In this document: in pieces, positions 34,573 to 54,420 of the stretch
Position numbering within the stretch: position 1 is the stretch's first letter
Layout of the letters: every line of letters starts with the position of its first letter
DNA from: Gemmatimonadales bacterium
Lineage (GTDB): Bacteria > Gemmatimonadota > Gemmatimonadetes > Gemmatimonadales > GWC2-71-9
Direction: 5' to 3'
Length of the DNA: 64,000 nt
Assembly (NCBI GenBank): GCA_036559745.1
Contig: DATBSO010000184.1
Location: forward strand, 14,023-78,022
The notes under the pieces: generated by a model
Seen by the model: only the letters and a program-made list of their open reading frames with translations
What the model was told of the DNA's origin: nothing
The model's database searches: none
Translations under genes and position numbers: made by a program

Positions 34573-34740
34573 TGTCATCGCGCATCCGATGCGTAGGGGC
34601 AGCTCCGCGTGAGAGGGTGGCGCCCTCCGGACGCCACAGTGGCCTGCGCCCGGGTGAGGAAGTGGGAGTAACTGGCGGCCCACTGAACGCGTCCGTCCGG
34701 GCACCCCCCTCTCCCACGTCGCGCCCCCAGGCATCGAAGT

Positions 34741-34774
34741 GCTTACGACACCGGGCGGCGCAGGGCCCGCCCGG
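34741..34774 (+). repeat. Hairpin repeat copy 2: GCTTACG-N3-CCGGGCGG-N8-CCGCCCGG
   Basis: 8-bp GC stem 34751-34758 / 34767-34774 preceded by GCTTACG. Same stem sequence as copy 1, about 202 bp away in the same 400-bp intergenic spacer. Confidence 0.6.
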
Positions 34775-34908
34775 AGCGCAAGCCCGGCAGCGAGAGCAGA
34801 TCCGAAGCGCCAACCCGCGTGCACGTTTCCCCCGCTCCCGCATCGCCTGTCGGTCCCGGGCATGGACATTGCCCGCCGAGTCGCCCGTCCCCGTCCCTCG
34901 AGGCCCGC

Positions 34909-35487
34909 ATGAATCGGCCGCTCTACGCCCTCGGCTGGAGTTACGTCGCCTTGTGCGGTCTCCTGCTGATGGATGCGCGCCGCCGACCGGTGCCCTCCGG
35001 CGGCGAGCCGCCCCCGCCCGCCACGCCGTTCCGCGGTGAAGCGTCCGAGTGGTTCGCCCAGGTCAAGCCGTTCTGCAATGCCGTGGAAGTCCAGGTCCGC
35101 CAGCAGCAAGTCCCGCCCCCCGCGACCGTGGACGGTGCCGGGTACGGGGCTGCGTGTTACGCCCTGGCCGGGAAGATCGAAGAAGCCAAGAAGGTCATCG
35201 ACGGACTCGATGCCGACCAGCGCTCCCGCGCCGCGGGAATCGTCTTCGAGATCGGACACCCCGTGGCCGACGCGGGGGACGACAAGTCGGCTGGCCCGAT
35301 CATGCGTCTCGTCGTCGGTTATCAGCCCGACAACTACATGGCCCTCTACCACGCCGGGATGTCGGAGTACATCCTGGGCGAGAGCGCCTTCGCCCGGACC
35401 CACCTCAAGCAGTTCATGAAACTCTATCAGAGCGAGGACGGCTGGCGCGCCAACGCGCGCGACGTCCTCAAGCGGCTCGGCGACTGA
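34909..35487 (+). CDS. Hypothetical membrane-anchored protein, translationally coupled to the downstream kinase
   Basis: ATG 34909 gives an N-terminal hydrophobic helix LYALGWSYVALCGLLLM. Composition is protein-like (..KQFMKLYQSEDGWRANARDVLKRLGD). Its TGA (35485-35487) shares one base with the kinase ATG (35487). Confidence 0.5.
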   Translation: MNRPLYALGWSYVALCGLLLMDARRRPVPSGGEPPPPATPFRGEASEWFAQVKPFCNAVEVQVRQQQVPPPATVDGAGYGAACYALAGKIEEAKKVIDGLDADQRSRAAGIVFEIGHPVADAGDDKSAGPIMRLVVGYQPDNYMALYHAGMSEYILGESAFARTHLKQFMKLYQSEDGWRANARDVLKRLGD

Positions 35488-37316
35488 TGACCACGTCCTC
35501 ATTCCTCACGCCCGGGGCGGTGCTGGCCGGCCGCTACGAGATCCTCCGTGAGCTGGGACGAGGCGGGTACTCGGTCGTCTACCTCGCGCGCGACCAATCC
35601 GTCGGAACCGAGGTCGCCCTCAAGCTCCTCGTTCCGCCGCCGGCCGCCGCGCAGCTCGCGCGCGAGCGGATGCGGCGCGAAGTCCAGGCGGTGCGCGGGC
35701 TCTCCCACGCCAACATCGTCGCCGTGTTCGATTTTCTGGAAGACGGGCCGTGGAGCTTCATCGTCATGGAGTACATCGCCGGGCCCGACCTCCAGGTCCG
35801 CGTGCGCGAGCGTGGCCCGCTCGAGGCGGGCCAGGCCGTGCAAGTGGGGTGCGACATCGCCGGCGCGCTCACGGCCGCACACCGGCGTGGCATCCTCCAC
35901 CGCGATGTCAAACCGCCCAACGTGCTCCTCGAGCCAGATGGCCGCGCCCGTCTCACCGACTTCGGCTCCGCGAAGCTCGACGGACAGCTCGGCGTCACCG
36001 GGACGGGAGCGCTCGCGGGGACGCTGGCATACACGTCGCCCGAGATTCTCGCCGGACGGCGGGGAGATGCCCGCGCCGACGTCTACGCCCTGGGACTCAC
36101 GCTCTACTTCGCGCTCACGGGCAGTCTCCCCGAGAGTCCGTCCGCGCACCTCCCGCCTTCGCCGTCGGAGGACGGGTACCATCCGAGCCGCGTCTCGCCG
36201 GCCGTGCCGCCGTGGCTCGACGAGGTGATCGCGCGCGCCACGACGTCGGCCGCGGAGAACCGATACCCCACGGCTGCGGCGTTCGGCGAGGCGCTCGCCG
36301 CACATGGCGCATCCCCGACGATGACGCGGGACGACGCGGCGACGTGCATGCTCTGCGGCGGCCCCGACCCGCTCACGCTCGGCATCTGTCCGACATGCGG
36401 CGGGTCTCCCAGGGCGGCGGACACGCTGGTGTTCCTCGATCGCGATCGCAGCACTGTTGCGCGTCGCGCCATCGCCCTGCGCCTCGCCGTGGTGATGCCC
36501 GACCTTCGCGACGTCGATCGCGACGCGGCCGCTCGCGGTGAGCGCCCGCTCTTCCGGGTTCCCGCGGCCAGCGCGACGCGGCTGCTCGAGGAGCTCGGAC
36601 GACGCGAGCTGCCGTCCCGCACACTGTCACCCTCCGGCGCGTGGACGGTCGTTCCCGCCGGATTCTGGCTCCTGGTCGCCGCGGTCGTGGTGGCGGGGAG
36701 TACCGCTGGCATGGCGGTCCTGCCTCCGCTTCTCGCGACCACACCCATGGTCGGTGCACTCCTGGTGCTGGGCGCCCGGCGCCTCTCGCGCACGCCACTC
36801 GTTTCGCCGCCCGCCCGGCGGAGCGGTCTCGCTCCCGCCGTCGAGAACGAAGTGGTGCGCACACTGTCCGAGCTTCCGGCAGGCACCGCGCGCAGTCTCC
36901 TGTCCGACCTCGTCCGGATGTGCGCCACCCTCAGCGCACGACTGGAGCGCACCGGTGACGATCGCGGCCTGACGCCGCAGCTCGCGGATCTCCTCATGGC
37001 GGCCTGCGGGGCGGCGACCGATCTCTCGCAGCTGGACGAAAACCTCGGACGGTTCGAGCGGCAGCGAGACCGGCTCGCAGCGCTACCCGAGGGCTGGCTC
37101 GACACACTCGCCCGCTGCGAACGAACCCGCGACGCACTGGTCCAGCGCCTTCTCGAGGCCATGACCGTGGCGGGACGGCTTCAGGGACAGCAGGCCGCGT
37201 TCGCCGCGGCCACCGACGAGTCGCTCGCCGATCTGACACGCGAGCTGAGGCTCGAGGGTGAGGCTCAAGGGGCCGCGGCGAAGGAAGTGGCCGCTCTCTT
37301 CAAACGGGAGATTTGA
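35487..37316 (+). CDS. Ser/Thr protein kinase with internal zinc ribbon, two TM helices and C-terminal helical domain
   Basis: GRGGYSVVY, VALK, HRDVKPPNVLL, DFG, SPE. CMLCGG..CPTCGG. Hydrophobic helices VVPAGFWLLVAAVVVAGS and LPPLLATTPMVGALLVLG. Ala/Leu/Arg-rich helical tail. Confidence 0.85.
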   Translation: MTTSSFLTPGAVLAGRYEILRELGRGGYSVVYLARDQSVGTEVALKLLVPPPAAAQLARERMRREVQAVRGLSHANIVAVFDFLEDGPWSFIVMEYIAGPDLQVRVRERGPLEAGQAVQVGCDIAGALTAAHRRGILHRDVKPPNVLLEPDGRARLTDFGSAKLDGQLGVTGTGALAGTLAYTSPEILAGRRGDARADVYALGLTLYFALTGSLPESPSAHLPPSPSEDGYHPSRVSPAVPPWLDEVIARATTSAAENRYPTAAAFGEALAAHGASPTMTRDDAATCMLCGGPDPLTLGICPTCGGSPRAADTLVFLDRDRSTVARRAIALRLAVVMPDLRDVDRDAAARGERPLFRVPAASATRLLEELGRRELPSRTLSPSGAWTVVPAGFWLLVAAVVVAGSTAGMAVLPPLLATTPMVGALLVLGARRLSRTPLVSPPARRSGLAPAVENEVVRTLSELPAGTARSLLSDLVRMCATLSARLERTGDDRGLTPQLADLLMAACGAATDLSQLDENLGRFERQRDRLAALPEGWLDTLARCERTRDALVQRLLEAMTVAGRLQGQQAAFAAATDESLADLTRELRLEGEAQGAAAKEVAALFKREI

Positions 37317-37455
37317 CACCGTCCGTCGCATCCGTTGACAGCTCTGTCCACCGCGCTCCTGGAATGTCGTTGGATCGCTACAACGAATTCCGTTCTCGCT
37401 CTCGTGCAACCCGCTGCATGGGAGACACAACTTCAACCTCCAAGCAGGCATCGCT

Positions 37456-37504
37456 CCACACCTTGCGGTTGATCCACCACACCGCTGCTGCCCCCCTCCA
37501 CACC
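37456..37504 (+). promoter_or_regulatory. Three CCACACC heptads at exact 21-bp phasing upstream of the biosynthetic cluster (candidate regulator-binding array)
   Basis: CCACACC at 37456-37462, 37477-37483 and 37498-37504, each preceded by C(T/A). They lie in a C/A-rich stretch of the 288-bp spacer, 100-150 nt upstream of ATG 37605. Confidence 0.35.
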
Positions 37505-37604
37505 CCTCCTCATATGGCGTACCTCTTGCCCCTTTCACGAGTTGCGAAACGGGGACATCCGACAAGCACTGCAAACCCTTGCAACAGCGAGACGGCCGCG
37601 AGCG

Positions 37605-38822
37605 ATGCGCGTACTCCTGCTGAACTACGAGTATCCCCCCTACGGTGGCGGCGCCGGTGTCGCCACCGAGGCGCTCGCACGAACGCTGGCCTCCCGCGGG
37701 GTGACGGTGGACGTCGTCACCGCGGGTGATGAAGCGAGTCACGAGTCAGTGCAGTTGTGGGATGGGACGGCCTCGCAGGAAGGACAGCTCAACGTTCACC
37801 GGGTACCCTGTAGCCGCACGTCTGTGCACGAGGCGGGGATGCGGGACGCGGCGAGCTATCTCCTCGCCGCGCTGCCGTTGGTCCGGCGACTCCTCCGCAC
37901 CGAGCGGTACGACGCGGCCCACTTCTTCTTCTCGCTCCCGACCGGAGCGATGATTCCGCTTCTCGATCTTCGCGGCATCCCCGTCATCGTTTCGCTCCGC
38001 GGTTCCGACGTCCCCGGTTACGACTCGCACAACCTCGCGCTCCGGCGAGCTCATCGTCTGCTCAAGCCGCTGACCCGGTGGATCTGGGGACGGGCCGATC
38101 GCGTGGTGCCGGTATGCGAGAGTCTCGGCAGACTCGCGCGCCAGACGATGCCCAAGCTCACCTACACGGTCATCCCGAATGGCGTCGACCTGGACCGGTT
38201 CCATCCGGCTACCGTGCGCCGTCATCGTCGCGCGGACCGCGTGCGCTGTATCGCCGTCGCGCGGCTGGTCGAGCGGAAGGGTCTCGACCATCTGCTCCGG
38301 GCGATCGCGTCGCTCGAGCGAGGGCGCTACGAGCTCGAGATCGTGGGCACGGGACCGGACGAGCACGCATTACGGGAGCTCGTGGCGACACTCGGGCTCG
38401 ACGGCCTGGTGACGTTCAGCGGATCGCTCGATCGCGCCAGCGTGGCCCGCCGTTATCGTGATGCCGACATCTTCGCCCTCGCTTCGGTCGAGGAGGCCTT
38501 CGGCAACGTCTTCGCCGAGGCGCTCGCGTCCGGTCTGCCGATCGTCGGCAGCAACATCGGCGGAATCCCCGCGCTGGTCGAGCACGGCGTCAACGGCCTC
38601 CTGGTTCCTCCACGGGACCCACACGCGCTGGCTGCCGCAATCCGGCAGCTCGGCGAGAACCCCGGACTCCGCGCGAGCATGAGCCGGCGGAACCGTGAGC
38701 ACGCCGAGAACATGCTGTCGTGGGATCGGATCGGGACCCGCTACCTCTCGCTCTACCATGGCATCCGCGTTCCCGCACGCGCCGGCTCTCGGCTGGCCGA
38801 GCTTCCATCGAGCTCCTGGTGA
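37605..38822 (+). CDS. GT4-family (GT-B) glycosyltransferase
   Basis: MRVLLLNYEYPPYGGGAGVA.. N-terminus. C-terminal ..EEAFGNVFAEALASGLPIVGSNIGGIPALVEHGVNGLLV.. (EX7E region). Confidence 0.9.
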   Translation: MRVLLLNYEYPPYGGGAGVATEALARTLASRGVTVDVVTAGDEASHESVQLWDGTASQEGQLNVHRVPCSRTSVHEAGMRDAASYLLAALPLVRRLLRTERYDAAHFFFSLPTGAMIPLLDLRGIPVIVSLRGSDVPGYDSHNLALRRAHRLLKPLTRWIWGRADRVVPVCESLGRLARQTMPKLTYTVIPNGVDLDRFHPATVRRHRRADRVRCIAVARLVERKGLDHLLRAIASLERGRYELEIVGTGPDEHALRELVATLGLDGLVTFSGSLDRASVARRYRDADIFALASVEEAFGNVFAEALASGLPIVGSNIGGIPALVEHGVNGLLVPPRDPHALAAAIRQLGENPGLRASMSRRNREHAENMLSWDRIGTRYLSLYHGIRVPARAGSRLAELPSSSW

Positions 38823-40120
38823 GCTACGCCGTCGGTTTCTGGGTGGCCGCGGATGCCTTCGAGGTGTTCCGGGCCCAGCGGTTGAGTCCCGATGCGCTCG
38901 GGGCGCTCGCCCGGCGAAGGCTCGGCCGTCTGCTCGTGGCGGCTGCCGGCACGGAGTTCTACCGGCGCCGATTGAATGCCGCGGGCGTAGACCCGCGGAG
39001 TCCGATGCTCCGCTCCGACCCCGACGCCATCATGTCCGTGCTCGCCCCCGTGGGGAAAGCGGAGCTGCGTGACGCGGGCTCCACGATCCTTCGGGGCGGA
39101 CGGATTCATCCCTCCTGGCAATCGTCGAGCTCTTCTGGCTCGACCGGCGAGCCATTCCGGGTGTTCTACGAGCCTCGGGCCTGGGCGACGCTCAAGCATC
39201 TCGTGAAGCTGCGCGCACGCATGGCGTGCGGCCTCCAGACCACCGACCGGATCGCGCTTTTCGATGCGATTCCGCCGTCGCGGCGGTGCGGCGTCAGTCG
39301 CGCAAGCCGGGTGGCGCGGATCAGCGTGCTGCAGCCGCCGGACGCGATGGCCGATCAGCTCTCCGCCTTCGCGCCCGATGCGGTCTACGGCCTCCCCTCG
39401 GCGCTGCTCGAAACGGCCTCCGCGCTGCGCCGGCGCGGCGCGAAGGTGGCGATCGAAAGGGTTTTCACCAGCGGCGAGCTGCTCCAGCCCGCTATCCGGG
39501 ATGCACTTGCCGATGCGTTTGGGGCGCGGGTCTTCGATGTCTACGGCAGCTCCGAGACGAAGGAGATCGCCTGGGAATGCTCCAGTGGCGGGATGCACGT
39601 CAACGCCGACGTGGTCCACCTGGAGGTGCTGGACGACGACGGCCGACCGGTGCCCGACGGGGTGGAGGGGAACCTCGTTGCCACCCCGCTCGTGAACCAC
39701 GCGATGCCGCTCCTCCGGTATCGGATAGGTGACCGCGGGAGTCTGCGCCCTCACGCGTGCGCGTGCGGCCACTCCTTTCCACTGCTCGGCGTGGTCACCG
39801 GCCGGGCCGCCGACGTGCTCGTGCTGTCCGATGGGCGCAGGATCTCGCCCTATGCCCTCACCTGCGCGCTCGAGCTGGAGCCCAGTCTCGTCCGCTATCA
39901 GGTGAACCAGCTCGACCCGGCGCGCATTCGCGTCCGCGCCATCGTCGCACCCGTCGCCTCGCTCGAGGCGGTAGCCGGCCGCATTCGCTCCCTGATCCGC
40001 TCCCAGGTAGCACCCCATCTCGAGACCGAGGTGGAGTTCGTGGACCATCTCCCCACCGGACCGCGGGCCAAGTTCCGCGTCGTCCAGCCGCTGGCGTCGC
40101 CGGCGGAATCTCTCGCCTGA
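38819..40120 (+). CDS. CapK/PaaK-like adenylate-forming enzyme (coenzyme F390 synthetase-like) 1
   Basis: GTG 38819 overlaps the GT4 stop (GTGA). ..SSSSGSTGEPFRVFY.. (AMP-binding P-loop-like motif), ..VYGSSETKEIAWEC.., ..LLRYRIGDRG..CACGHSFPLLGVVTGRAAD... Confidence 0.8.
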   Translation: MSYAVGFWVAADAFEVFRAQRLSPDALGALARRRLGRLLVAAAGTEFYRRRLNAAGVDPRSPMLRSDPDAIMSVLAPVGKAELRDAGSTILRGGRIHPSWQSSSSSGSTGEPFRVFYEPRAWATLKHLVKLRARMACGLQTTDRIALFDAIPPSRRCGVSRASRVARISVLQPPDAMADQLSAFAPDAVYGLPSALLETASALRRRGAKVAIERVFTSGELLQPAIRDALADAFGARVFDVYGSSETKEIAWECSSGGMHVNADVVHLEVLDDDGRPVPDGVEGNLVATPLVNHAMPLLRYRIGDRGSLRPHACACGHSFPLLGVVTGRAADVLVLSDGRRISPYALTCALELEPSLVRYQVNQLDPARIRVRAIVAPVASLEAVAGRIRSLIRSQVAPHLETEVEFVDHLPTGPRAKFRVVQPLASPAESLA

Positions 40121-40134
40121 TCCGGGATCTCACG

Positions 40135-41103
40135 ATGATCCAGATACCCTCCGATCGTTCTTCCTTCCGCTCCGAGCCCGGCGGCCGTGGCGGCGCGCGC
40201 GCGCTGCCCCACCCGCTCACGCCGTACGCGGATCTCATCGTGAACTTCTGTCCGACGGGGATGATTCCGACCAAGGCAATGACGCCGCACGTACCGGTGT
40301 CCCCGTCGGAAGTAGTCGATCAGGCGTGCGCGGCGCTGGAGCGCGGCGTGGCGATCGTCCATCTCCACGCCCGGGACGACGACGGCGCGCCGACGTGGCG
40401 GGGCGAGATCTACGAGCAGATGATCCTCGGGATCCGCGCGCAGTTTCCCGAGGCGATCACCTGCGTGAGCTGCAGCGGCCGGAACTTCCCGGAGTTCGAG
40501 CGGCGGAGCGAAGTGCTGGAGCTGACCGGCGCCGCGCGTCCCGACCTGGCGAGCCTCACGCTTACGACCCTCGATTTCCCGACCGGCACCAGCCAGAACG
40601 CGCCCGACATGGTGATCGCGCTGGCCGAAAAGATGATCGCGAAGGGGATCAAGCCCGAGCTCGAGTGCTTCGATTACGGGATGATCAACGCCGCCAACAT
40701 GCTCATCGCCAAGGGAGTCCTGGGCGACGGCCCCCACTACTTCAACCTACTCCTCGGCTCGCGCTACTCGGTGCCGGCCACCGCCCGTCACCTGTCCGGC
40801 ATGATCGCCGATCTTCCCGATGACTCGCTGTGGTCGGCGGCCGGGATCGGTCTCTTTCAACTTCCAATGAACGCGCTCGCCATCGCGATGGGCGGACATA
40901 CCAGGGTCGGCCTCGAGGACAACATCTTCCACGGCTTCGACCGGAGCGAGCTGGCCACCAACCAGGGTCTCGTCGAGCGCGTGGCCGACCTGAGCGAGAC
41001 CTTCGGCCGCCGGCTGGCGTCGCCCGCCAGCGCCCGCGCCATGATGGGCCTCGGACCGTCCGCCGCGGTGCTCCAGCGCGAGCGTGCCGGGCTCGTCCGA
41101 TGA
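40135..41103 (+). CDS. BKACE-family enzyme (3-keto-5-aminohexanoate cleavage enzyme-like, DUF849)
   Basis: ..LIVNFCPTGMIPTK.., metal-ligand contexts ..VAIVHLHARDDDG.. (HxH) and ..GHTRVGLEDNIF.. (E). TIM-barrel-like length of 322 aa. Confidence 0.85.
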   Translation: MIQIPSDRSSFRSEPGGRGGARALPHPLTPYADLIVNFCPTGMIPTKAMTPHVPVSPSEVVDQACAALERGVAIVHLHARDDDGAPTWRGEIYEQMILGIRAQFPEAITCVSCSGRNFPEFERRSEVLELTGAARPDLASLTLTTLDFPTGTSQNAPDMVIALAEKMIAKGIKPELECFDYGMINAANMLIAKGVLGDGPHYFNLLLGSRYSVPATARHLSGMIADLPDDSLWSAAGIGLFQLPMNALAIAMGGHTRVGLEDNIFHGFDRSELATNQGLVERVADLSETFGRRLASPASARAMMGLGPSAAVLQRERAGLVR

Positions 41104-42443
41104 TCACCAAGGGGCCGGACCTCCTCGGAACCGCCAGCGCGGTGCAGCGTCATCCACGCGCCGACCGGGCGCAGCTCCAGGCGTTTCAGGACGCCAAGCT
41201 TCGCCGGCTCCTCTCACACGCCTACGAGAACGTCCCCTACTATCGAAAGCTCTTCGATCGCCATCGCCTGCACCCGCGACACATCCGCGGGGCGGTGGAC
41301 CTCGAGCTCATCCCGATCACCAGCAAGCAGGAGCTGCGCGACCTTCCGGCCACGGACCTCGTCGCCCGAGGAGTCTCTCCGGTGGCCCTGCTGTCGGTGC
41401 GGACAAACGGATCGACCGGCGAGCCGTTCATCATCCGTCGCACCCGTCTCGAGCAGGGATTTCACACGCTCTTCCGCCAGCGCGCCTACGAGTCGTTCGG
41501 CCTCGGGCTCCGCGGCCGAATCGCCGCCGTGGGCCTGCCGCGCCCAGCCGATCCGAAGGAGAGCAGGGTCGTGGGCCGCTGGCTGAGCGCGATGGGCGTG
41601 CACCCCACGCTCCGGGTGGACGGGTTGCAGGACCCCGAGGACATCGTGGATCAGCTCGAGGCCTTCCGCCCCGATCTCATCACGGCGCTCCCCGGCATGC
41701 TGCTGCGCGTCGCCGATTTCCTCCTGGATCACCGTCCCGAGCGACTGCGCCCGCGGATCGTGGTGGTGGGCGGTGAGGTCCTGACCCCGCTCGTCCGCCG
41801 CCGGCTGACCGAGGCATTCGGCGTGGCGCCGCTGGAGACGTACGCCTGCCACGAGTTTCAGCTGCTCGGCTGGGAGTGTCGGACCCACGGCGGCATCCAC
41901 ACATGCGATGACGGCGTCGCCATCGAGGTGCTGCGCGACGGCCAGGCGGTGCAACCCGGCGAGGAGGGGGAGGTCGTCGCCACCAATCTCCACGCCTACG
42001 CCATGCCCCTCATCCGGTATCGCCTTGCCGATCTCGTCACTCGCGGCGCCGACCGATGCGCGTGTGGGCAGCCGTTCTCGGTCATCGGCGCCATCCGCGG
42101 GCGGATGGTGGATTATTTCCCGCTTCCGAACGGCCGCACGATTCACCCGTACCAGATCCTCCAGTGCCTGCAGCCCGGCTCCGACGGGTGGATCCGCCAG
42201 TATCAGCTCCTGCATGACCGGCCCGAGCGCATCGTCCTTCGGGTGGTGCCGTCCGATTCAATCACCCCCGAACTGGAAAGCCGGATCACCGGGGCCGTGA
42301 TGCCGCTCCTCGGCCCTGGCGTCGAGTTCCAGGTGCGGATCGTGGACGACCTCCCGCTCGATGCCGGCGGCAAGTTCCGCCACGCGCGCTCGCTGATGGC
42401 CTCCACGTACGAGCGCCTCGTCCCCCCGGCCGCGAATGGTTAG
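41100..42443 (+). CDS. CapK/PaaK-like adenylate-forming enzyme 2 (paralog of 38819..40120)
   Basis: ATGA overlap at 41100-41103. ..YENVPYYRKLFDRH.., ..TNGSTGEPFIIRR.., ..LIRYRLADLV..CACGQPFSVIGAIRGRMVD.., colinear with the first copy. Confidence 0.85.
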   Translation: MITKGPDLLGTASAVQRHPRADRAQLQAFQDAKLRRLLSHAYENVPYYRKLFDRHRLHPRHIRGAVDLELIPITSKQELRDLPATDLVARGVSPVALLSVRTNGSTGEPFIIRRTRLEQGFHTLFRQRAYESFGLGLRGRIAAVGLPRPADPKESRVVGRWLSAMGVHPTLRVDGLQDPEDIVDQLEAFRPDLITALPGMLLRVADFLLDHRPERLRPRIVVVGGEVLTPLVRRRLTEAFGVAPLETYACHEFQLLGWECRTHGGIHTCDDGVAIEVLRDGQAVQPGEEGEVVATNLHAYAMPLIRYRLADLVTRGADRCACGQPFSVIGAIRGRMVDYFPLPNGRTIHPYQILQCLQPGSDGWIRQYQLLHDRPERIVLRVVPSDSITPELESRITGAVMPLLGPGVEFQVRIVDDLPLDAGGKFRHARSLMASTYERLVPPAANG

Positions 42444-43791
42444 GCTCGCCGAGCCATACGAGCAGGACCCCGCGCCCAGACTCTTCGTGCACGGTGCGGC
42501 GAGTCCGGCCAGAGGCGCGCGCGGAACGCCGCGTGCCGTCGAGCGCGCCTCCGAGCGGGCGCTGGTCCTCGCGCGGGCGCAGGACATCGTCTGCGTGAGC
42601 GAAGAGGTGGAGCCGGCCTATCTCGCCTACCTGGCCGAGCTCGGCCTGGGACCGGCGCCCGATCGCGTCGTGGCCGCGTCGCGATTCGGCGATCACGAGC
42701 CGGGGCGCGCGCTCTGGGCCCGGCTCGCGGGAAGCACCGAGGCTCTTCGGGCGATCGGCACACTGCTCCGCGACGCCGGCCCGTCGCGGCTGCATCCGTT
42801 CATCGCCTCGCGCGGCTCCTTCGCGCTCGCGGCGGCCCTCGAGGTCGCGTCCGAGACCGAGGTAAGCGTGGTAGGGGGTGACCCGGAGATCGTCGAGCGC
42901 GCCGATCACAAACACCATATCCGGGAACGCGCCATCCGGCTGGCGATCCCCGTGGCCGATGGGGAGGTCGTGCAGCTCGCGGTTGCAGGTGGGCGCCGCC
43001 GCCGTGACTTCGACGCGCTCCGCGCCGCGGTGGAGCGCTGGCTTCGGCCCACCGGCCGCGTGCTCGTCCGCGGTACCCAGGGCGCCGGCAACTCGGCCAG
43101 CTACGTCGTTGGCACGGGCGGTACCGATCCTGACGGGCTGATCCGCGCACTCGCCGATCACCCGGAGACCCGGACCTACCTGGTCGAGGCGATGGTGGCC
43201 GCCACCCTGTCACCCAACGTGCAGCTCCACGTGGCACCCGGCGACGGCCCGATCACCTGCGTCGGCGTCACCGACCAGCGCTGGGAGCGTCCGCTGGTTC
43301 ACGGGGGGAACCTGTATCCCTCGATGGCACGTCTTGCCGGAGAGATGGTGGACTGGGCAACTCGCCTGGCGTCATCGCTCCAGCGGGAGGGGTACGCCGG
43401 TCTCCTCAGTCTCGACTTCGTCGAGTACGCCGATCCCGCCACCAACGCGCCTCGCGCCATCCTCGTCGAGGCGAGCCCTCGGGTGACGACGGATACCTAT
43501 CCGCTCGCGCTCTTCGCGCGGCTCAACGACGCCCAGCGCGTGGCCGGCCGTCCCGAGAGCGCCGCGTTCGTCTCCGGGACCATCGACACCCGGCCACGGC
43601 GCTTCGCCGACTTCCATCGCGCCGCACACCATCTCCTCTATTCGCCGACCACCGGGACCGGTGCGGTCCCGGTCCACATCGGCGCGCTGAGCCGGGGCAA
43701 GTGCGGAGTGGTCGTCCTCGGTCCGAGCCGCGACGCCGTCCTGCGCGCATCCGGGGAGCTCCAGAGCTGGTGTCGGAGGGAAGGACGGTGA
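42436..43791 (+). CDS. ATP-grasp-type ligase (pre-ATP-grasp + PGM1-like C-terminal domain)
   Basis: 8-nt overlap with the upstream gene. ..ADHKHHIRERAIRLAIPVADG.., ..VLVRGTQGAGNSASYVV.., ..YLVEAMV.., ..YAGLLSLDFVEY...ILVEASPRVTTDTYPL.. resemble the ATP-grasp nucleotide/Mg sites. Family assignment made by eye. Confidence 0.6.
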   Translation: MVRLAEPYEQDPAPRLFVHGAASPARGARGTPRAVERASERALVLARAQDIVCVSEEVEPAYLAYLAELGLGPAPDRVVAASRFGDHEPGRALWARLAGSTEALRAIGTLLRDAGPSRLHPFIASRGSFALAAALEVASETEVSVVGGDPEIVERADHKHHIRERAIRLAIPVADGEVVQLAVAGGRRRRDFDALRAAVERWLRPTGRVLVRGTQGAGNSASYVVGTGGTDPDGLIRALADHPETRTYLVEAMVAATLSPNVQLHVAPGDGPITCVGVTDQRWERPLVHGGNLYPSMARLAGEMVDWATRLASSLQREGYAGLLSLDFVEYADPATNAPRAILVEASPRVTTDTYPLALFARLNDAQRVAGRPESAAFVSGTIDTRPRRFADFHRAAHHLLYSPTTGTGAVPVHIGALSRGKCGVVVLGPSRDAVLRASGELQSWCRREGR

Positions 43792-44774
43792 CGCTGCTCG
43801 CCTCCGTCGAAGAGCGGTTCCTCGTCCCCGCATACGCGTCCCGGCTCGCCGAGGCGTGGATCGCGACCCATGGCGCCCTCGCTTTGCCGTTCCAGCTGCG
43901 CGGCGAGGTGCGCCGGTCCGTGGTCGCGACCGAGGGCGGCTCACTTCGCGTGCTGGAGATCGGCCGGAAGAAACATCTGACGCCATTCCGTCAGAAGCTT
44001 CTCGGTCCCGTCACGCAGGAGCACGACGACGGAACGCTGACGCTCACAAGCCCCGCCGCGCTCGACGCCGTGAGTGCGGATCTCACACTGGTGGAGATCC
44101 ATCGCTGGATGGCGCCCCGGTTTCGCCGGGCCGGATGGATCGTCGTCCCGGCCGATGTACGGTGGCAGGGCGATCTCTCGAATCTTCCACCCCGCCGGCC
44201 GACCGTCAGCCTCAAGTCGGACCTCGCGAAGGTCCGGCGACACGACTACACCCTGGAGCACGCGACCGACTCAGGTGACTGGGACGAGTTCTACCACGGG
44301 ATGGTGGTGCCGCAGGCCCGCGCCCGCTTCGGCGACGACGTCTGGATCCCGAGCGAGCGGCTCCAGCGCGTGCTGTCGGTGAGGGGAAGGCTGCACTTCA
44401 TCCGCCGTGGAGGCGTTCGTGTGGCGGGGGTGTGCTCGGTCCGCGACGGCGCGTCGCTCTGGCTGCCGTTGATGGGGCTGCGCCAGGGCGATCAATCGCT
44501 CTTGCGCGAAGGCGTGTATTCGGCGGCCTTTTCGCTCGTGTTCGCCTGGGCTCGCGAGATGGGCTGCCAGCGAGTGGACATGGGCCGGACGTCGCCCTTC
44601 GTTCACGACGGCATCCAGCGCTTCAAGCGGAAGTGGGGACTGCAGCCGGCGGCTGATCCGCTCAGCCATCTGATTGCCGTACGCGCTGGCCAGTCGGTCC
44701 GGCCGATGTTCGAGCGGCAGCCCGTGTTGATCGAGACGGCGCGCGGCATAGCGACCTACCCGGAGGCCGCATGA
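43788..44774 (+). CDS. GNAT-fold acyl/aminoacyl-transferase (Acetyltransf_6 / FemAB-like)
   Basis: GTGA overlap at 43788-43791. ..KSDLAKVRRHDYTLEH.., ..LHFIRRGGVRVAGVCSV.., ..GCQRVDMGRTSPFVHDGIQRFKRKWG.. are typical of the BioF2-like/FemAB-like acetyltransferase domain. Confidence 0.6.
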   Translation: MTLLASVEERFLVPAYASRLAEAWIATHGALALPFQLRGEVRRSVVATEGGSLRVLEIGRKKHLTPFRQKLLGPVTQEHDDGTLTLTSPAALDAVSADLTLVEIHRWMAPRFRRAGWIVVPADVRWQGDLSNLPPRRPTVSLKSDLAKVRRHDYTLEHATDSGDWDEFYHGMVVPQARARFGDDVWIPSERLQRVLSVRGRLHFIRRGGVRVAGVCSVRDGASLWLPLMGLRQGDQSLLREGVYSAAFSLVFAWAREMGCQRVDMGRTSPFVHDGIQRFKRKWGLQPAADPLSHLIAVRAGQSVRPMFERQPVLIETARGIATYPEAA

Positions 44775-45454
44775 GCCTGCCGGGCCGTCTCACGAGGCTC
44801 GTGGGCCATTGGCGCGATCTCCCGGCGGAGACAGCCCGCGCGTGGCGGGTGGGTGGACTGCGTGAGGTCCGTCAGCTCTTCGCCGACCGGTCGGTGCATC
44901 TCGTCTTCCGCCGTGACCGGATGGTCGTGATCGCGCAGCGGCTCGATGGCGTGCGCGAAGTGCCGGCTCCGGCGGGCGTGACGATCTCGATCGCGACGGC
45001 GGCCGACGTCGATCGTCTTGCCGGAATGGTCGGGGCCCGCGACCTCGATCTGTTCCGGGCCCGGCATGCGGCGGGTCGTACCTGCCTCCTCGCCTGGCGC
45101 GACGGACGGCCGATCGGCTACACGTGGCTCTCCGAGCACGTCGGGCCCGACGTGACGATCTGCCCGCTCCCGCTCCCGTCCCACGCGGCCTACCTCTACG
45201 ACCTCTACGTCGTGCCCGCGGAGCGCAGCTCCGGCGTCGGCTCGGCGCTCGTGAGCGCCCGGCTTCGTCTCGCGCGCGAGCGCGGCTTCATCGAGGGCTG
45301 GCGGATGATCTCGGTGGGGAACCGTGCGTCGTTCCGGACGGTGGACAAGACCGGTGGGACGGGTACTCGCGTAGTCGGGGAGATGCGGTACTACAAGGTT
45401 CTCGACCGCATCTATCCCCGGTTCACGCCGGCTCCCGATGCGGCCCGGCCATGA
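44771..45454 (+). CDS. GNAT-family N-acetyltransferase
   Basis: ATGA overlap at 44771-44774. ..LLAWRDGRPIGYTWL.., ..YLYDLYVVPAERSSGVGSALVSARLRLARERG.. (acetyl-CoA-binding Q/RxxGxG/A-like motif). Confidence 0.7.
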   Translation: MSLPGRLTRLVGHWRDLPAETARAWRVGGLREVRQLFADRSVHLVFRRDRMVVIAQRLDGVREVPAPAGVTISIATAADVDRLAGMVGARDLDLFRARHAAGRTCLLAWRDGRPIGYTWLSEHVGPDVTICPLPLPSHAAYLYDLYVVPAERSSGVGSALVSARLRLARERGFIEGWRMISVGNRASFRTVDKTGGTGTRVVGEMRYYKVLDRIYPRFTPAPDAARP

Positions 45455-46629
45455 GCGCCGTGCCCTCTCTGGCGGCCCCTCCTGAAAACACCCGATTCGC
45501 CGTCGCGATCGAAGGCAGGGCCGCGAGCGTGCGTCCCGATGAATGGAACGCACTCGCCCGGCGAGGCTTCTCGCTCCACCGTTGGCACGCCGCGGCTGAA
45601 GCGAGCGGCTGGCGCGCGCGCCACGTCGTGGTCCGCGAGCGCGGCGCGATTCGCGCGATCGTCCCCGCGTACCTCCTCGATGGCGGGGCCGCGCTCGACA
45701 TCCACGACCGCTGGCTCGGCCCTCTCGGTCCGGCGATGGCCGCAATGGGCCTCCGTCTCAGGCCCACCATCTCCGTCGGCGCGCCCGGATCCACCACGAG
45801 CGATTGGCTTGGCGATCTCGACGGCCTGCCCGATGTGATCCTCGCGCAGGTGCTTGCCGCACTCGAGGACCAGGCTCGGCTCGATGGGGCGCGGGCGGTG
45901 GTGTGGCCGTTTGTGGATCAGGACAGGACGCGCCTCCGCGAAATGGCCCGACAGGCGGGGTACCTCGACGTCTATGCCGGCTCGAGCGCGAGGCTCGGCA
46001 TCGAATGGCCTTCCTTCGACGAATACGTCTCGAGTCGCTCGAAGAGCCTTCGCCGGACGATTCGGGGTGAGCTCCGCTCTCTCGCCGATCAGGGGATCCG
46101 CACGGCGATCACCGACGACTTCCGCGTCCACGCCGGTGCGATGGCGTCCGTGTATCGTGGCAGCAACGGACGTCACCGTGGACGGACTCCCGCCGTGCCG
46201 GATGCCCTCTTCGAGCAGCTTGCGAGGGTGCCGACTCCGGGACTCTGGGGACAGCTCGCATTCGTCGGCGACCATCTCGTCGCATCGAGCGTCTCCGTCG
46301 TCGCGGGCGGCATCATGGAGGGGACCCTCGCCGCGTTCACGCCGGAGTTTCTCGGCGGACCGGTCTATCACAACGACCTGGTGTACGAGCCGCTGCGTCT
46401 CGCCTGTTCGCATGGCGTGGGCGCGCTCGACCTTGGACCCACGGCGCTATACCCCAAGGTGCTGCGCGGTGCACGGCTGCGCCGGCGCCGGACGCTCGCG
46501 CTGGGCGTGTCAGGTCCGGTGCACGCGGCCCTCAGGACGCTCGGTCCGCTGGTCGCACGCCGGACGGAGTGGAAAGAGCGTCGGGCACTCGCCCCGCTCG
46601 GCGCGCTCGAATCGCTGATCATCGCATGA
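45451..46629 (+). CDS. FemAB-like / DUF482-type GNAT-fold protein
   Basis: ATGA overlap at 45451-45454. ..RPDEWNALARRGFSLHRWHAAAEASGW.., ..FDEYVSSRSKSLRRTIRGELR.., ..LDLGPTALYPKVLRGARL.. resemble the peptidoglycan-biosynthesis/recognition FemAB_like family. Confidence 0.6.
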   Translation: MSAVPSLAAPPENTRFAVAIEGRAASVRPDEWNALARRGFSLHRWHAAAEASGWRARHVVVRERGAIRAIVPAYLLDGGAALDIHDRWLGPLGPAMAAMGLRLRPTISVGAPGSTTSDWLGDLDGLPDVILAQVLAALEDQARLDGARAVVWPFVDQDRTRLREMARQAGYLDVYAGSSARLGIEWPSFDEYVSSRSKSLRRTIRGELRSLADQGIRTAITDDFRVHAGAMASVYRGSNGRHRGRTPAVPDALFEQLARVPTPGLWGQLAFVGDHLVASSVSVVAGGIMEGTLAAFTPEFLGGPVYHNDLVYEPLRLACSHGVGALDLGPTALYPKVLRGARLRRRRTLALGVSGPVHAALRTLGPLVARRTEWKERRALAPLGALESLIIA

Positions 46630-48068
46630 CCAGCGTTCGCCTGCCGATCTCGACCGCGCGCCGGCCGAGCCTCCTACATCGGATCGCAGCCTACTCGGCG
46701 AGCCGCGGTGTCACGGAGGGACTCCTCGGGCTTCGCGGCATCGCGCTCGCCACCGTGCTTGGCCCTGCCGGCTTCGGTGCCTGGGCGCTGCTCCGGCTCT
46801 CGATGCGCTACGGCACCTTCGCCGCGCTCGGCGTCTTTCGTGGCATGGAGCTGGAGATGTTGAGCGTCCGCCGAGGCGACCGGGGCACCGCGGACTACGC
46901 GGCGAGCGCGGCACTCGGCTTCATTCTGGCGGAAACAGGGACGCTCGCGGCCATTGCTGTCGTCGCTTCGTTCCTGGTGAGGGACCCGGCCCACGCGCTC
47001 GTCCTTCGAGGATTCGCCGCCGCGGTGATCTTCGAGCAGACCTACATCTATGCGATGGTGTGGACCCGGGTACGAACGACGCTCCGGCGCTACGCCATTC
47101 TCGAGATGGCCAATGCTGCCCTTCAGCTCGTGTGCGGAGCATCGCTCGCCTGGGTCTGGGGGCTTCCGGGCGCCTTTGCCGGGATGGCGCTGGCGAGCGC
47201 GCTCGCGATCGCGTTGTCCGCCGGCTGGGTGGTCTTCCGTCCCGCGATCCGGCCCGTGCCGCTGCGACGTCTGCTCGGCGTCGGCATTCCGATCACGGCT
47301 TCGATGCTGCTCGCCACCGCGCTCTACACCGCCGACCGATGGGTCGTCGCCGCGCTGGGCGGCGCGACCCTGCTCGGCTACTACGCGTTCGCCGCCGCGG
47401 TCGCCGATGTGACCGGATCGTTCGCCTGGGTGGTGCGAACCGTCGTGTTCGCCGACGTGTACGGGCTGGCCCAGTCGTCCGGGGCGGCGGCTGCGCTCAC
47501 CCGTCACTTCGATCGTGCCGTGATCCCGTTCGCACGGCTCTACCCACCGCTCCTCGGTGCGCTCGCCTGCGTGCTCGGACCCGTCGTGACCCTCGTCGTG
47601 CCCCAGTATCTCCCCGCGGTGGCGCCGGCGAGACTCTTTCTCCTGTGCGGCGCGGCCGGCGGCATCGTGAGCCTCGCGGCGGTCGGCGCGGTCGCGGCGG
47701 GGAAGCATCGGAGCCTGCCCATCCTCTCGGCCGGCGCGCTGGTCGTGAGCCTCTCGCTCTCGGTCGGCGCGATCCGATCAGGCTTGGGGCTCGAGGCAGT
47801 GGCCGCTGCGGCCCTCACCGGCCAGGCGATCTATGCGGCCGGGGTTCTGTGGCTCACCTGCCGGGAGAGCGGGCGCACGGATACGGTCGCATTTCTCCGG
47901 CGCGCGCTTCTTCCCCTCGTCTGGTGTACGGCGGCGGTGGTCACGGTCGGGCGGCTCTTTCCCGGAAACGATTTCGCGTCCGCCGGCCTCGCGCTCCTCG
48001 CCTATCTCCTTCTGATGGTTCCCCTCGTGCCGTCCATCCGCCGCGAGTGGCGGGGAGTGCGGAGGTAA
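46626..48068 (+). CDS. MOP-superfamily (Wzx/polysaccharide-biosynthesis-protein-like) flippase/exporter
   Basis: ATGA overlap at 46626-46629. 480 aa, at least 12 hydrophobic helices. N-terminus ..LRGIALATVLGPAGFGAWALL.. is typical of Polysacc_synt proteins. Confidence 0.75.
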   Translation: MTSVRLPISTARRPSLLHRIAAYSASRGVTEGLLGLRGIALATVLGPAGFGAWALLRLSMRYGTFAALGVFRGMELEMLSVRRGDRGTADYAASAALGFILAETGTLAAIAVVASFLVRDPAHALVLRGFAAAVIFEQTYIYAMVWTRVRTTLRRYAILEMANAALQLVCGASLAWVWGLPGAFAGMALASALAIALSAGWVVFRPAIRPVPLRRLLGVGIPITASMLLATALYTADRWVVAALGGATLLGYYAFAAAVADVTGSFAWVVRTVVFADVYGLAQSSGAAAALTRHFDRAVIPFARLYPPLLGALACVLGPVVTLVVPQYLPAVAPARLFLLCGAAGGIVSLAAVGAVAAGKHRSLPILSAGALVVSLSLSVGAIRSGLGLEAVAAAALTGQAIYAAGVLWLTCRESGRTDTVAFLRRALLPLVWCTAAVVTVGRLFPGNDFASAGLALLAYLLLMVPLVPSIRREWRGVRR

Positions 48069-48071
48069 ACG

Positions 48072-48920
48072 ATGGCCGCTCCGCGCGAGCGACTCTCCGT
48101 CGTGGTGCTCACGTCGATCCCGCTCGGGATCGAGGTGGCGGCGGCGCTCAAGGCGTTGCCGGAGGTCGGGCGCATCGTGCTCCTCACGGCCCCGGCCGCG
48201 CCGTCGCGATCCATGCTTGATCAGCTGAAGGTCACCTGGCGGTACGAGGGAATACCGGGTCTTCTCCGAGCCGTGTTGCGGCGCGCGCGAAAGGCGGCAC
48301 GGCTCGAAGAGGGGAACAAGGTCGCCGCCCAGGCGGCTCGCCGTTGCCCCAGCGTCGCCCACTTCGCGATGCCTCGCTTTCACTCGGAGACCTGCCGCGC
48401 CTTCATCGACGCGATGGCCCCGGACCTCGGCGTGGTCGTCGGCACCCACATCCTGCGTGGAGACCTCTACCGCATCCCGCGTCTCGGCTGCATCAACCTC
48501 CACCTGGGCGCGGCGCCCGAATTCCGCGGCTCCTCCCCCGGCTTCTACGAGCTGCTGGAGGGCGTTGGGGAGGCGGGCGTCACGATTCACCGGGTGACCG
48601 ATACCCTCGACGGCGGCAACATTCTTCTCCAGGAGCGGTTCCCGCTCGACATCGCCCCCAAGGGCGATCCCCTCGAGTATCTCTCGCGTTATGTCGCCGA
48701 CGTGCTCTGCCCCAACGGCGTGCGGATGATGACCGCCGCGGTGGCGGCACTGGCCCGAGGCGCCTGCGCGGAGCGAATTCAGGACGTCTCCCGGGCCCGC
48801 CCGCACCGGCGTGCGACCTGGGCGCTCAAGAAGGCGCTTCGGCGTCGGGTGGCCGGGAGAAGGGCGGCGCGGAGGGGAACCGTTCACGGGAGGTTGACAT
48901 CCCCCGCGACCGAGCCGTAA
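48072..48920 (+). CDS. Formyltransferase (Fmt/ArnA N-domain-like)
   Basis: Starts 3 nt after the exporter stop. ..GCINLHLGAAPEFRGSSPGFYEL.. (catalytic N/H region) and ..TIHRVTDTLDGGNIL.. (catalytic Asp region). Arg-rich tail. Confidence 0.8.
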   Translation: MAAPRERLSVVVLTSIPLGIEVAAALKALPEVGRIVLLTAPAAPSRSMLDQLKVTWRYEGIPGLLRAVLRRARKAARLEEGNKVAAQAARRCPSVAHFAMPRFHSETCRAFIDAMAPDLGVVVGTHILRGDLYRIPRLGCINLHLGAAPEFRGSSPGFYELLEGVGEAGVTIHRVTDTLDGGNILLQERFPLDIAPKGDPLEYLSRYVADVLCPNGVRMMTAAVAALARGACAERIQDVSRARPHRRATWALKKALRRRVAGRRAARRGTVHGRLTSPATEP

Positions 48921-48989
48921 GTTGCCGGGAACTAATCCCTAGCAGCCGAGTCTGAATTTGTCACAACGCCGTATCATGCGCCCCTGTTG

Positions 48990-49019
48990 CTGCCCTGTCC
49001 CAGCCGGACAGGAGGGCAG
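48990..49019 (+). terminator. Bulged GC hairpin downstream of the cluster (possible terminator)
   Basis: CTGCCC-TGTCC (48990-49000) pairs with GGACA-gga-GGGCAG (49006-49019), about 70 nt after the formyltransferase stop. No U-tract. Confidence 0.3.
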
Positions 49020-49144
49020 GCGCTGACCTACGTCGAGGCACATGCTGCATGAGTCGACGGCCGCGCCCTCCCAACCGGGTCACGCGGCCGATTTCATTTT
49101 CCGGGTTTGACGGTCTGTCCAATGCGAGGGAACGAGGAGGAGTT

Positions 49145-50038
49145 ATGGGAGCAGCACAAGCAGTGCGTCCAGTTGTCCCAATCGACCAGCGGGGCTACGC
49201 CCACCCCGAGGTCCTGGTGTCGACCGACTGGGCGGCCGAGCACCTCAACGATCCAAAGGTCCGCCTGATCGAATCGAACGAGGACATTCTCCTCTATGAC
49301 ACCGGGCACATCCCGGGCGCGGTCAAGCTCGACTGGACTACGGACCTGAACGATCCCGTCGTGCGTGACTACATCGACCGCGAGCGGCTCCAGAAGTTGC
49401 TGCGGGCGAAGGGCGTCAGCGACGACACGACGATCGTCTTCTATGGCGACAAGAACAACTGGTGGGCGACCTATGCCCTCTGGGTGCTTCAGCTCTTCGG
49501 TATCACGAACATCAAGATCCTCGACGGCGGCCGGCTCCGCTGGGTCGAGGAGGGCCGGAAGCTCAGCACGGACACGCCGACGTATCCGGCAGGCAACATC
49601 ACGCTCAAGGAGCGGGACGACGCCAAGATCCGCGCGTTCCGTGAGGATGTGCTGGCGCATCTGAAGAAGAAGGGTCAGCTGGTGGACGTGCGGAGCCCCG
49701 AGGAGTATCGCGGAGAGCGGACCCATATGCCCGAGTATCCGCAGGAGGGATGCCTCAGAGGCGGCCACATCCCCGGCGCCAAGAGCATTCCGTGGGCCAA
49801 GGCGGTGGATCCCGACACCCACACTTTCCGCCCGGCGAGCGAGCTCAAGAAGCTGTACGAGCAGGACAACAATCTGAAGAAGGATTCCGAGACGATCGCG
49901 TATTGCCGGATCGGTGAGCGCTCGTCCCACACGTGGTTCGCGCTCACCTATCTCCTCGGCTTCGACAACGTCCGCAACTACGACGGCTCGTGGACGGAGT
50001 GGGGCAATGCGGTGAGACTGCCGGTGGAGAAGCCGTAA
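49145..50038 (+). CDS. Thiosulfate sulfurtransferase (tandem rhodanese domains)
   Basis: ATG 49145 is preceded by GGAGGAG. ..[14 protein letters not shown].., active-site loop ..[14 protein letters not shown].., ..[10 protein letters not shown]... Confidence 0.9.
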
Positions 50039-54221: not shown

Positions 54222-54267
54222 AGGGAGACCGCGCAGCACCCCACTGCGCCCCGCCCCATGTTAGCCA

Positions 54268-54312: not shown

Positions 54313-54420
54313 TCCGTGTATGATTGCAGTCACGCGGGTACGGCCCAAAACCGAGGCCGCCCGCACGGAGGCCAAATGCGTGATCAGCGATTGTCCGATA
54401 TGAGCCCCCCTCGAACGACC

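Follow-up and report, generated by a model that had tools for sequence, protein, structure and literature searches.

We analysed a 64,000-nt stretch of the genome of a Gemmatimonadales bacterium (contig DATBSO010000184.1; the whole stretch is hereafter the window, with a G+C content of 65-73%). Between positions 37605 and 48920 it carries ten consecutive + strand genes, G1 to G10, which encode a GT4 glycosyltransferase, PaaK-like and ATP-grasp ligases, a beta-keto acid cleavage enzyme (BKACE), GNAT- and FemAB-related transferases, a Wzx-type membrane protein and a formyltransferase (Table 1). Codon-position G+C and open reading frame (ORF) structure show all ten to be open and in frame. Seven of the nine junctions overlap: by 4 nt as GTGA at G1/G2 (38819-38822) and G5/G6 (43788-43791), by 4 nt as ATGA at G3/G4 (41100-41103), G6/G7 (44771), G7/G8 (45451) and G8/G9 (46626), and by 8 nt at G4/G5 (42436-42443). 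The only gaps within the run are one of 14 nt before 40135 and one of 3 nt before 48072. Direct reading of the sequence matched exactly every junction given in an earlier sequence-only reading of this DNA. The start of G1 at 37605 is backed by the conserved ATGCGCGT at the gene start in 35 aligned loci, and the G4/G5/G6/G7 boundaries are identical in independent gene calls on other contigs with the same sequence. The tight junctions are seen again in orthologous loci at 50-90% protein identity, and gene order and coupling are kept down to approximately 45%.

Table 1. Genes of the operon and conserved upstream elements (window positions)
Feature	Position	Strand	Basis
Palindrome TGTCGTTGGATCGCTACA (TGTNG-N8-CNACA)	37365..37382	none	34/35 orthologous upstream regions
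Second conserved non-coding block GCAACCCGCTGCA (GCAAnc-N3-CTGCA)	37406..37418	none	Alignment of 35 upstream regions
Sigma-54-type -24/-12 element TGGCGTACCTCTTGC	37515..37529	+	TGGC-N7-TTGC or one-base variant, 35/35 loci
G1 retaining GT4 glycosyltransferase, 405 aa	37605..38822	+	Pfam Glycos_transf_1, 126 bits, with Glyco_transf_4
G2 PaaK-like adenylate-forming ligase, 433 aa	38819..40120	+	Pfam AMP-binding region only
G3 BKACE family, 322 aa	40135..41103	+	Pfam BKACE, 265 bits, positions 2-274/274
G4 PaaK-like adenylate-forming ligase, 447 aa, partner of ATP-grasp	41100..42443	+	Pfam AMP-binding region only
G5 PGM1/BesA-like ATP-grasp amino-acid/peptide ligase, 451 aa, core gene	42436..43791	+	Pfam PreAtp-grasp
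G6 Acetyltransf_6 (FemAB-related GNAT), 328 aa	43788..44774	+	23.6 bits, cut-off 22
G7 small GNAT N-acyltransferase, 227 aa	44771..45454	+	Pfam Acetyltransf_1, 41.6 bits
G8 FemAB_like (DUF482) tandem-GNAT protein, 392 aa	45451..46629	+	Pfam FemAB_like, 37 bits, and Acetyltransf_6
G9 Wzx/PST-type MOP-family membrane protein, 480 aa	46626..48068	+	Polysacc_synt_3, 22.4 bits
G10 formyltransferase, catalytic domain only, 282 aa	48072..48920	+	Formyl_trans_N, 58.8 bits

The 290 nt before G1 are non-coding and hold blocks that are conserved in all variants of the locus. The -24/-12 element sits 29-131 nt 5′ of the GT4 start, and its GG and TTGC are invariant in 34/34 tabulated loci; a transcript would be predicted to start near 37540. 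In 33/34 loci the palindrome lies 137-151 bp 5′ of the -24 element and, because this spacing is the geometry of a sigma-54 activator enhancer, it is a candidate enhancer (upstream activating sequence) for such an activator. The palindrome pattern occurs once in the window. Neither pattern is rare enough to be significant when counted in this window alone, and the case for both therefore rests on their conservation across loci. The sigma-54 element and the palindrome are new relative to the sequence-only reading. A riboswitch or leader RNA 5′ of G1 was rejected, as Rfam returned nothing at gathering level across the window and noise only in 37200-37700; the upstream conservation is accounted for by promoter-type DNA elements. 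No sigma-70-like promoter was found in 37000-49300, where terminator-like hairpins are not commoner than in shuffled sequence. An intrinsic terminator 3′ of G10 was likewise rejected, the fold there being no better than that of shuffled sequence (z = -0.8), and for this reason transcription may run on into the rhodanese gene that follows. From these sequence features we predict that window positions 37365-48920 are most likely one sigma-54-dependent operon of ten translationally coupled genes.

Domain calls were made by Pfam and NCBIfam profile searches, supplemented for G5 and G8 by AlphaFold models and Foldseek. All ten family assignments of the sequence-only reading were upheld by these profile searches, and those of the ATP-grasp and FemAB-like proteins also by predicted fold, while none of the ten proteins reached an NCBIfam equivalog cut-off. 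G1 carries the EX7E motif at residues 297-305. Its nearest solved structures are BshA, MshA, PimA/PimB and sucrose-phosphate synthase, and its alignment with BshA (5d00, E 1e-22) spans the entire protein. Its scores lie below the NCBIfam cut-offs for BshA (115.5 vs 273.7) and MshA (111 vs 462.5), and it shows partial matches to the glycosyltransferases of exopolysaccharide (EPS) and PEP-CTERM systems (stp2, 135 vs a cut-off of 409; stp3, 102 vs 442).

The two adenylate-forming ligases, G2 and G4, share 33% identity. G2 has the ANL motifs SSGSTGEP (P-loop), YGSSE and RYRIGD and a C-terminal lysine (AKF), and its NCBIfam matches are to DVU_1553, PaaK, BagE/FevW and F390-synthetase types, all below cut-off; the DVU_1553, PaaK and F390-synthetase types also rank best for G4. 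G4 has NGSTGEP, RYRLAD and GKF, and its nearest solved structures are PaaK (4r1l, E 6.5e-24), the NatL2-type 6siw and AjiA1. Neither reaches the cut-off of 646 for PaaK proper (TIGR02155), with 67.9 bits for G2 and 102.2 for G4; judged by sequence, both are PaaK-like members of the adenylate-forming superfamily and not PaaK. The ester- and amide-forming PaaK-like ligases NatL2, AjiA1 and BagE/FevW, together with ligases annotated as 'CapK' in polysaccharide loci, match G2 and G4 in sequence, but the scores fall far below the equivalog cut-offs. Pfam CapK_C matches orthologues of G4 and is the sole backing here for a CapK label.

Enzymes of the BKACE family convert a beta-keto acid and acetyl-CoA to acetoacetate and an acyl-CoA. 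G3 scores 236.7 bits against the Kce equivalog NF052387, below the cut-off of 382, and its substrate is therefore not assignable from Kce. No other protein of the operon is as conserved: its identity across loci is 74-90% vs approximately 45-80% for its neighbours, an excess that suggests either a tightly constrained role or recent spread.

In G5 the PreATP-grasp domain (PF18604) scores 42.4 bits against a cut-off of 27.5, and it is present in every full-length homologue. The AlphaFold model (pLDDT 84.6) has as its top 19 Foldseek matches BesA (8yi6), a Streptomyces peptide ligase (8ynd/8ynq) and PGM1 (3wvq), with E values from 2e-21 to 8e-15 and TM values of 0.72-0.79 to 8yi6, 8ynd and 3wvq. 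By this fold G5 is predicted to form an amide bond in an ATP-dependent manner, through an acyl-phosphate. The family is small, given that only 191 clusters (50% identity) are found at E<=1e-30 among 1.84 billion representatives. G5 shares its domain and best-matching predicted fold with PGM1 of pheganomycin synthesis, BesA, the Streptomyces ATP-grasp ligases and Staphylococcus aureus LdmS, but its sequence identity to these enzymes is only 15-18%. Its surroundings differ too: in Gemmatimonadota it is accompanied by PaaK-like ligases, Fem-like transferases and a GT4, and neither a precursor peptide gene nor partner genes of bes or pgm type are present.

The Acetyltransf_6 match of G6 is weak alone, yet the domain is found in 17/17 orthologues (best E 3.8e-11). 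One G6 orthologue is 234 aa long in a long-read contig of a metagenome-assembled genome (MAG; L001 11356-12343) while a short-read contig from that organism (L002 2799-3785) gives 328 aa; the long-read assembly probably has a frameshift. The AlphaFold model of G8 (pLDDT 85.6) has as its top 11 Foldseek matches only aminoacyl-tRNA-dependent enzymes, namely Sbb17/Sba18, FemX and the MprF C-domain; the structure of the first of these, Sbb17, is of a complex with streptothrisamine. Acyl-CoA-dependent tandem GNATs sit further down the list, and fold alone does not fix the donor. On this model G8 is a probable aminoacyl-tRNA-dependent transferase. Sbb17 attaches an aminoacyl group to an amino-sugar amine during the synthesis of streptothricin-related antibiotics, which is, by analogy, the type of step that we propose for G8; Sbb17, Sba18 and the aminoacyl-lipid synthase MprF are its best structural matches but have no detectable sequence similarity to this Pfam FemAB_like (DUF482) protein. 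No functional study of the FemAB_like family was found in literature searches. The possibility that G6 and G8 are recent paralogues was rejected, since BLASTP finds nothing between them and hhalign gives a probability of 2.5%. Neither has any NCBIfam match, and no PDB sequence match was obtained for G6, G8 or G9, profiles included.

G9 is polytopic, with approximately 12-14 hydrophobic segments, and lies 0.6 bit below the Polysacc_synt_3 cut-off of 23. Its assignment rests on family-wide Pfam matches: Polysacc_synt_3 is found in 11/12 orthologues (best E 2e-12) and Polysacc_synt in 4/12. G10 has the motif INLH...PEFRG...LDGG and retains the catalytic Asn-x-His...Asp; its nearest solved relatives are Met-tRNA formyltransferase, sugar N-formyltransferases and ArnA.

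We then surveyed 185,579 species genomes with G5 as the only seed, such that the survey covers G5-bearing loci, and gene content was established by tblastn of the window proteins against all loci. The survey yielded 58 loci, approximately 45 of which are in MAGs of Gemmatimonadales/Gemmatimonadota; the remainder are in Nitrospirota, Planctomycetota (Brocadiia), Verrucomicrobiota, and Alpha- and Gammaproteobacteria. None of the 58 comes from a cultured Gemmatimonadota isolate. In Gemmatimonadales the position of the locus is constant, with DUF5916 (with or without a kinase) on one side and a rhodanese gene on the other. The latter is always 3′ and on the same strand, and its product is 72-89% identical across loci.

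Dozens of species-level genomes share these genes, in an order that is identical or almost so. The ten-gene system put forward in the sequence-only reading is thus a real and conserved cluster, but its members do not form an obligate unit, as variants run upward from GT4 and ATP-grasp. Loci range from these two genes alone to 11-12 genes with additional Mur-type and ATP-grasp ligases (Table 2). Their content is largely nested: to GT4 and ATP-grasp is added G4, then G8, then G2 and G7, then BKACE and G6, and finally, each present or absent, Wzx, the formyltransferase and a Mur ligase. The ten-gene set is therefore the most complete form of a modular locus with GT4 and ATP-grasp as its retained core; Wzx and the formyltransferase are each dispensable in it. 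GT4 is kept in every Gemmatimonadales locus with both flanks but L033. In a neighbour-joining tree of the ATP-grasp, which has no support values, reduced loci nest inside clades of full loci, and therefore repeated loss with retention of GT4 and ATP-grasp is favoured.

Table 2. Gene content of representative loci
Gene content	Loci
GT4 + ATP-grasp only	L013, L014, L015/L062, L022, L030
GT4 + ATP-grasp + Mur-type ligase	L046
GT4 + ATP-grasp + G4	L029
GT4 + ATP-grasp + G4 + Mur	L032, L058
GT4 + ATP-grasp + G4 + G8	L010
G1, G2, G4, G5, Mur, G8, G7	L043
G1, G2, G4, G5, Mur, G8, G7 + BKACE + G6	L019
G1-G8 + Wzx, without formyltransferase	L012, L028
G1-G8 + formyltransferase, without Wzx	L003, L018, L023, L031
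All ten, in the window's order	L001, L005, L006, L007
All ten + Mur ligase	L021, L024, L025, L035, L063

The additional Mur-type gene encodes a 419-aa Mur_ligase_M+C protein and lies directly 3′ of the ATP-grasp gene (L063 4280-5539; also L019-L027, L032, L035, L039, L040, L043, L046 and L058). In a gammaproteobacterial MAG (L059) a Mur-ligase-like sequence adjoins the ATP-grasp gene on the opposite strand. A further extra gene, between G2 and BKACE, encodes a 409-aa protein with a weak CPSase_L_D2 (ATP-grasp) signal (L003 6459-7688; also L016, L033, L036 and L044) and, going by that signal, is probably another ligase. Tandem duplications were observed of the GT4 gene (L034 3858-6511) and of the ATP-grasp gene (Brocadiaceae MAG L045, 9569-12728).

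Two natural gene fusions tie the ATP-grasp to other carboxylate-activating enzymes: P0129 (896 aa) joins a full-length G4-like PaaK ligase to a PGM1-like ATP-grasp, and P0140 (1103 aa) joins an AsnB-type amidotransferase to one. The G4-G5 pair is retained in other phyla. An alphaproteobacterial MAG (L050) has a toolkit of G4, G5, two Acetyltransf_6 proteins, GT4, a G2-like ligase, a GNAT and an LpxL/PatA-type acyltransferase, and in a Nitrospiraceae locus (L049) the ATP-grasp occurs together with five PaaK-like ligases, Acetyltransf_6, two AsnB, a methyltransferase, a GT2 and a MocA-type sugar oxidoreductase. In L050 (15247-17486) the Lip_A_acyltrans (LpxL/PatA-like) gene lies just 5′ of GT4, an arrangement that recalls the PatA-PimA pairing of glycolipid synthesis and, by this analogy, hints at a lipid acceptor.

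Within the window the operon is preceded by genes for a DUF5916 protein, a small protein of unknown function and a Ser/Thr kinase. It is followed by the two-domain rhodanese and then by GDPD, acyl-CoA synthetase and esterase genes on the opposite strand. The small protein (approximately 194 aa, no Pfam match; window 34687-35487, L001 2473-3057) lies between DUF5916 and the kinase and occurs only in loci that bear the kinase. The rest of the window contains an RND efflux operon, an OtsA-OtsB fusion, peptidases, kinases, a two-component pair and ECF sigma factors. The OtsA-OtsB gene (20117-22363) encodes a fused trehalose-6-phosphate synthase/phosphatase of 748 aa (Glyco_transf_20 and Trehalose_PPase). 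On the - strand, 4225-6021 encodes a cyclic-nucleotide-binding domain fused to a pyridine nucleotide-disulphide oxidoreductase, and adjoins a TetR gene and the RND efflux operon (6016-12681). Two ECF-type sigma factors with a DUF6596 C-terminal domain lie in 59049-63698 (59523-60773, +; 61349-63076, -), each adjoining a YCII-domain gene.

What might the locus make? The direct observations are the gene structure, the family and fold memberships, the conserved nested synteny, the fusions and the conserved promoter elements. We give an even chance to the proposal that the locus makes a short aminoacyl or peptidyl (pseudopeptide) chain on an acceptor with a single sugar, without ribosome or nonribosomal peptide synthetase (NRPS). 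The sequence-only reading had predicted an aminoacyl- or peptidyl-decorated glycoconjugate, or an exported peptide-like metabolite, and as an inference this remains the best reading. In the form that we propose, and on which our confidence is evenly balanced, the chain would be built on, or joined later to, one sugar on a small or lipid acceptor, receive an acyl or formyl cap, sometimes be N-formylated, and be flipped where Wzx is present. The GT4 would make one glycosidic bond, to an acceptor that is either a lipid or a small molecule. The PGM1/BesA-like ATP-grasp, retained throughout, would form an amide bond via an acyl-phosphate, and G4, its fusion partner elsewhere, followed by G2, would add further acids via acyl-adenylates. 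In some lineages the Mur-type ligase and a second ATP-grasp would add more units. BKACE may turn a beta-keto acid and acetyl-CoA into an unusual acyl-CoA, whose acyl group would be transferred by the GNAT G7, or by G6, and G8, with its FemX/Sbb17/MprF-like fold, would add an amino acid from aminoacyl-tRNA. G10 would then N-formylate a free amine as a cap, and the Wzx-type protein, if present, would flip a lipid-linked product across the inner membrane to its outer face. The nested series of gene contents fits successive elongation steps.

Several points weigh against this proposal. We infer every substrate, the order of the steps, the product and its location, and the role given to BKACE is a guess drawn solely from the chemistry of its family. 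Several loci that are otherwise complete have no Wzx, and export by flipping is therefore not essential. Moreover, L033 has no GT4 and in other phyla the G4-G5 pair occurs without one, and so the sugar may be a late decoration and not the scaffold. The tree on which gains and losses were read is a neighbour-joining tree without support values. Lastly, neither rpoN nor a matching activator was seen within the 64 kb, and a search of the window and of the retrieved flanks of the relatives' loci gave no Sigma54_activat protein.

A somewhat unlikely alternative is that the operon serves only to decorate a polysaccharide (EPS, capsule or O-antigen), the genes for whose backbone, priming transferase, polymerase and export would be located elsewhere, with the ligases amidating uronic acids or acylating amino sugars of an undecaprenyl-phosphate repeat unit that Wzx flips. 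At the family level G9 does provide the Wzx/PST-type flippase of a Wzx/Wzy-dependent polysaccharide locus, the ATP-grasp of L049 stands in a polysaccharide-like context, the AsnB::ATP-grasp fusion exists, and the GT4 partially matches EPS and PEP-CTERM glycosyltransferases. Haft's descriptions reportedly place a FemAB-related protein, an acyl-CoA ligase and AsnB in PEP-CTERM/exosortase EPS loci, which likewise combine Fem-related GNATs, adenylate-forming ligases and GT4, and L049 adds AsnB-type enzymes. However, as the sequence-only reading had claimed for most of these classes, the approximately 40 other window ORFs that were scanned (3471-4224, 22364-22905 and 54222-55075 lay outside the scan) encode no NRPS or polyketide synthase (PKS), carrier protein, nucleotide-sugar enzyme, Wzy, Wzz/PCP or exosortase; nor was a priming phosphoglycosyltransferase found among them. 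There is a single glycosyltransferase, the solved relatives nearest to it act on small molecules or lipids, two-gene versions of the locus occur, and Wzx is dispensable in several lineages. The comparison with PEP-CTERM loci is further weakened by the lack of NCBIfam matches for G6 and G8 and by the sub-threshold stp2 and stp3 scores of the GT4. The condensation, ketosynthase and carrier domains of an NRPS/PKS cluster are absent from every scanned ORF.

It is distinctly unlikely that the product is instead a cytoplasmic small glycoside, such as a thiol of the mycothiol/bacillithiol kind or a compatible solute, in which a BshA/MshA-like GT4 supplies the sugar, the ligases add amino acids, a GNAT caps the molecule and sigma-54 couples expression to nitrogen status or stress. 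In its favour, BshA and MshA align with the GT4 along its entire length, the minimal locus is a GT4 with one ligase, a GNAT is present (cf. MshD in mycothiol synthesis), many variants are without Wzx, and the rhodanese gene is always next, on the same strand. The operon and the mycothiol/bacillithiol pathways thus share a structural neighbourhood of GT4, ATP-dependent ligase and GNAT. The BshA and MshA equivalog scores are, however, far under cut-off, no deacetylase or Cys ligase gene lies at the locus, and these pathways have no counterpart of the Wzx and Fem-like proteins, the former of which many loci carry. The rhodanese, at its level of identity across loci (72-89%), looks like a conserved flanking housekeeping gene.

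PGM1 is among the nearest structural relatives of G5, and a pheganomycin-like pathway would have this ligase join non-proteinogenic acids to the N-terminus of a ribosomal peptide. We regard this as highly improbable. The 14 nt and 3 nt of non-coding sequence inside the operon leave no space for a precursor gene, no conserved small ORF exists in the leader (approximately 65 nt) or in the 128-nt tail, and conserved promoter elements occupy the upstream 290 nt; moreover, BesA and LdmS are relatives just as close, and their substrates are free amino acids. That the genes are unrelated neighbours or several independent units without a common product, as their differing content between genomes might suggest, is barely credible given the overlap at 7/9 junctions, the conservation of order and coupling to approximately 45% protein identity, the gene fusions, and one conserved promoter ahead of G1 with none found inside. 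An anti-phage defence or conflict system was rejected, none of the ten proteins matching any PADLOC model; the GT4-conflict Pfam match of G1 (50.7 bits) is far weaker than its generic GT4 matches.

Of the known systems, peptidoglycan precursor assembly has a logic like that of the proposed aminoacyl or peptidyl chain pathway, with stand-alone ATP-dependent ligases that build a peptide on a sugar, followed by aminoacyl-tRNA-dependent Fem transferases and a MOP flippase (Mur ligases, FemXAB and MurJ). Ligase-based pseudopeptide pathways that centre on PGM1 homologues also resemble the proposed pathway in their logic. Some variants of the locus carry Mur_ligase_M+C, and G8 has a FemX-like fold. 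However, the operon uses mainly ATP-grasp and PaaK-like ligases and not MurC-F, and GT4 and not MurG/MraY, and peptidoglycan assembly has no counterpart of its BKACE, GNAT or formyltransferase. On these comparisons the likeness is one of mechanism and not of membership. A bolder reading, which we think unlikely, is a second assembly line akin to that of peptidoglycan precursors. It would make a formyl-capped oligopeptide or pseudopeptide with a beta-keto-acid-derived unit on one lipid-linked sugar, by way of tRNA-dependent transferases and as many as five free-standing ligases drawn from three superfamilies, ATP-grasp, PaaK-like and Mur-type; it would be switched by sigma-54 and displayed on the envelope, with its length tuned by gain and loss of modules.

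In summary, this operon of soil Gemmatimonadales is real and conserved and apparently undescribed, with all of its components drawn from known enzyme families, and no concept is overturned by it. The sequence-only reading had not recognised the gene set as a described pathway, and we too obtained no NCBIfam equivalog, PADLOC model or relevant literature match; literature searches on CapK, DUF482 and the gene combination gave no relevant paper, and the Lipocone paper does not describe the set. The points of note are the multi-ligase design, the natural series of two to twelve genes and the conserved sigma-54-type control. If our reading is true, the locus would be a compact natural case of peptide-like assembly without ribosome or NRPS, in which at least three amide chemistries (acyl-phosphate, acyl-adenylate and aminoacyl-tRNA) act on a sugar, and its variants of two to twelve genes would allow steps to be assigned by comparison. 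It would also provide a source of stand-alone ligases for biocatalysis, the first functional context for FemAB_like (DUF482) and for BKACE outside catabolism, and a defined member of a sigma-54 regulon with a candidate enhancer site in Gemmatimonadota. Were the assembly-line reading true, the product would represent a class of envelope glycopeptide or glycolipid new to science, from a phylum that has hardly been studied.

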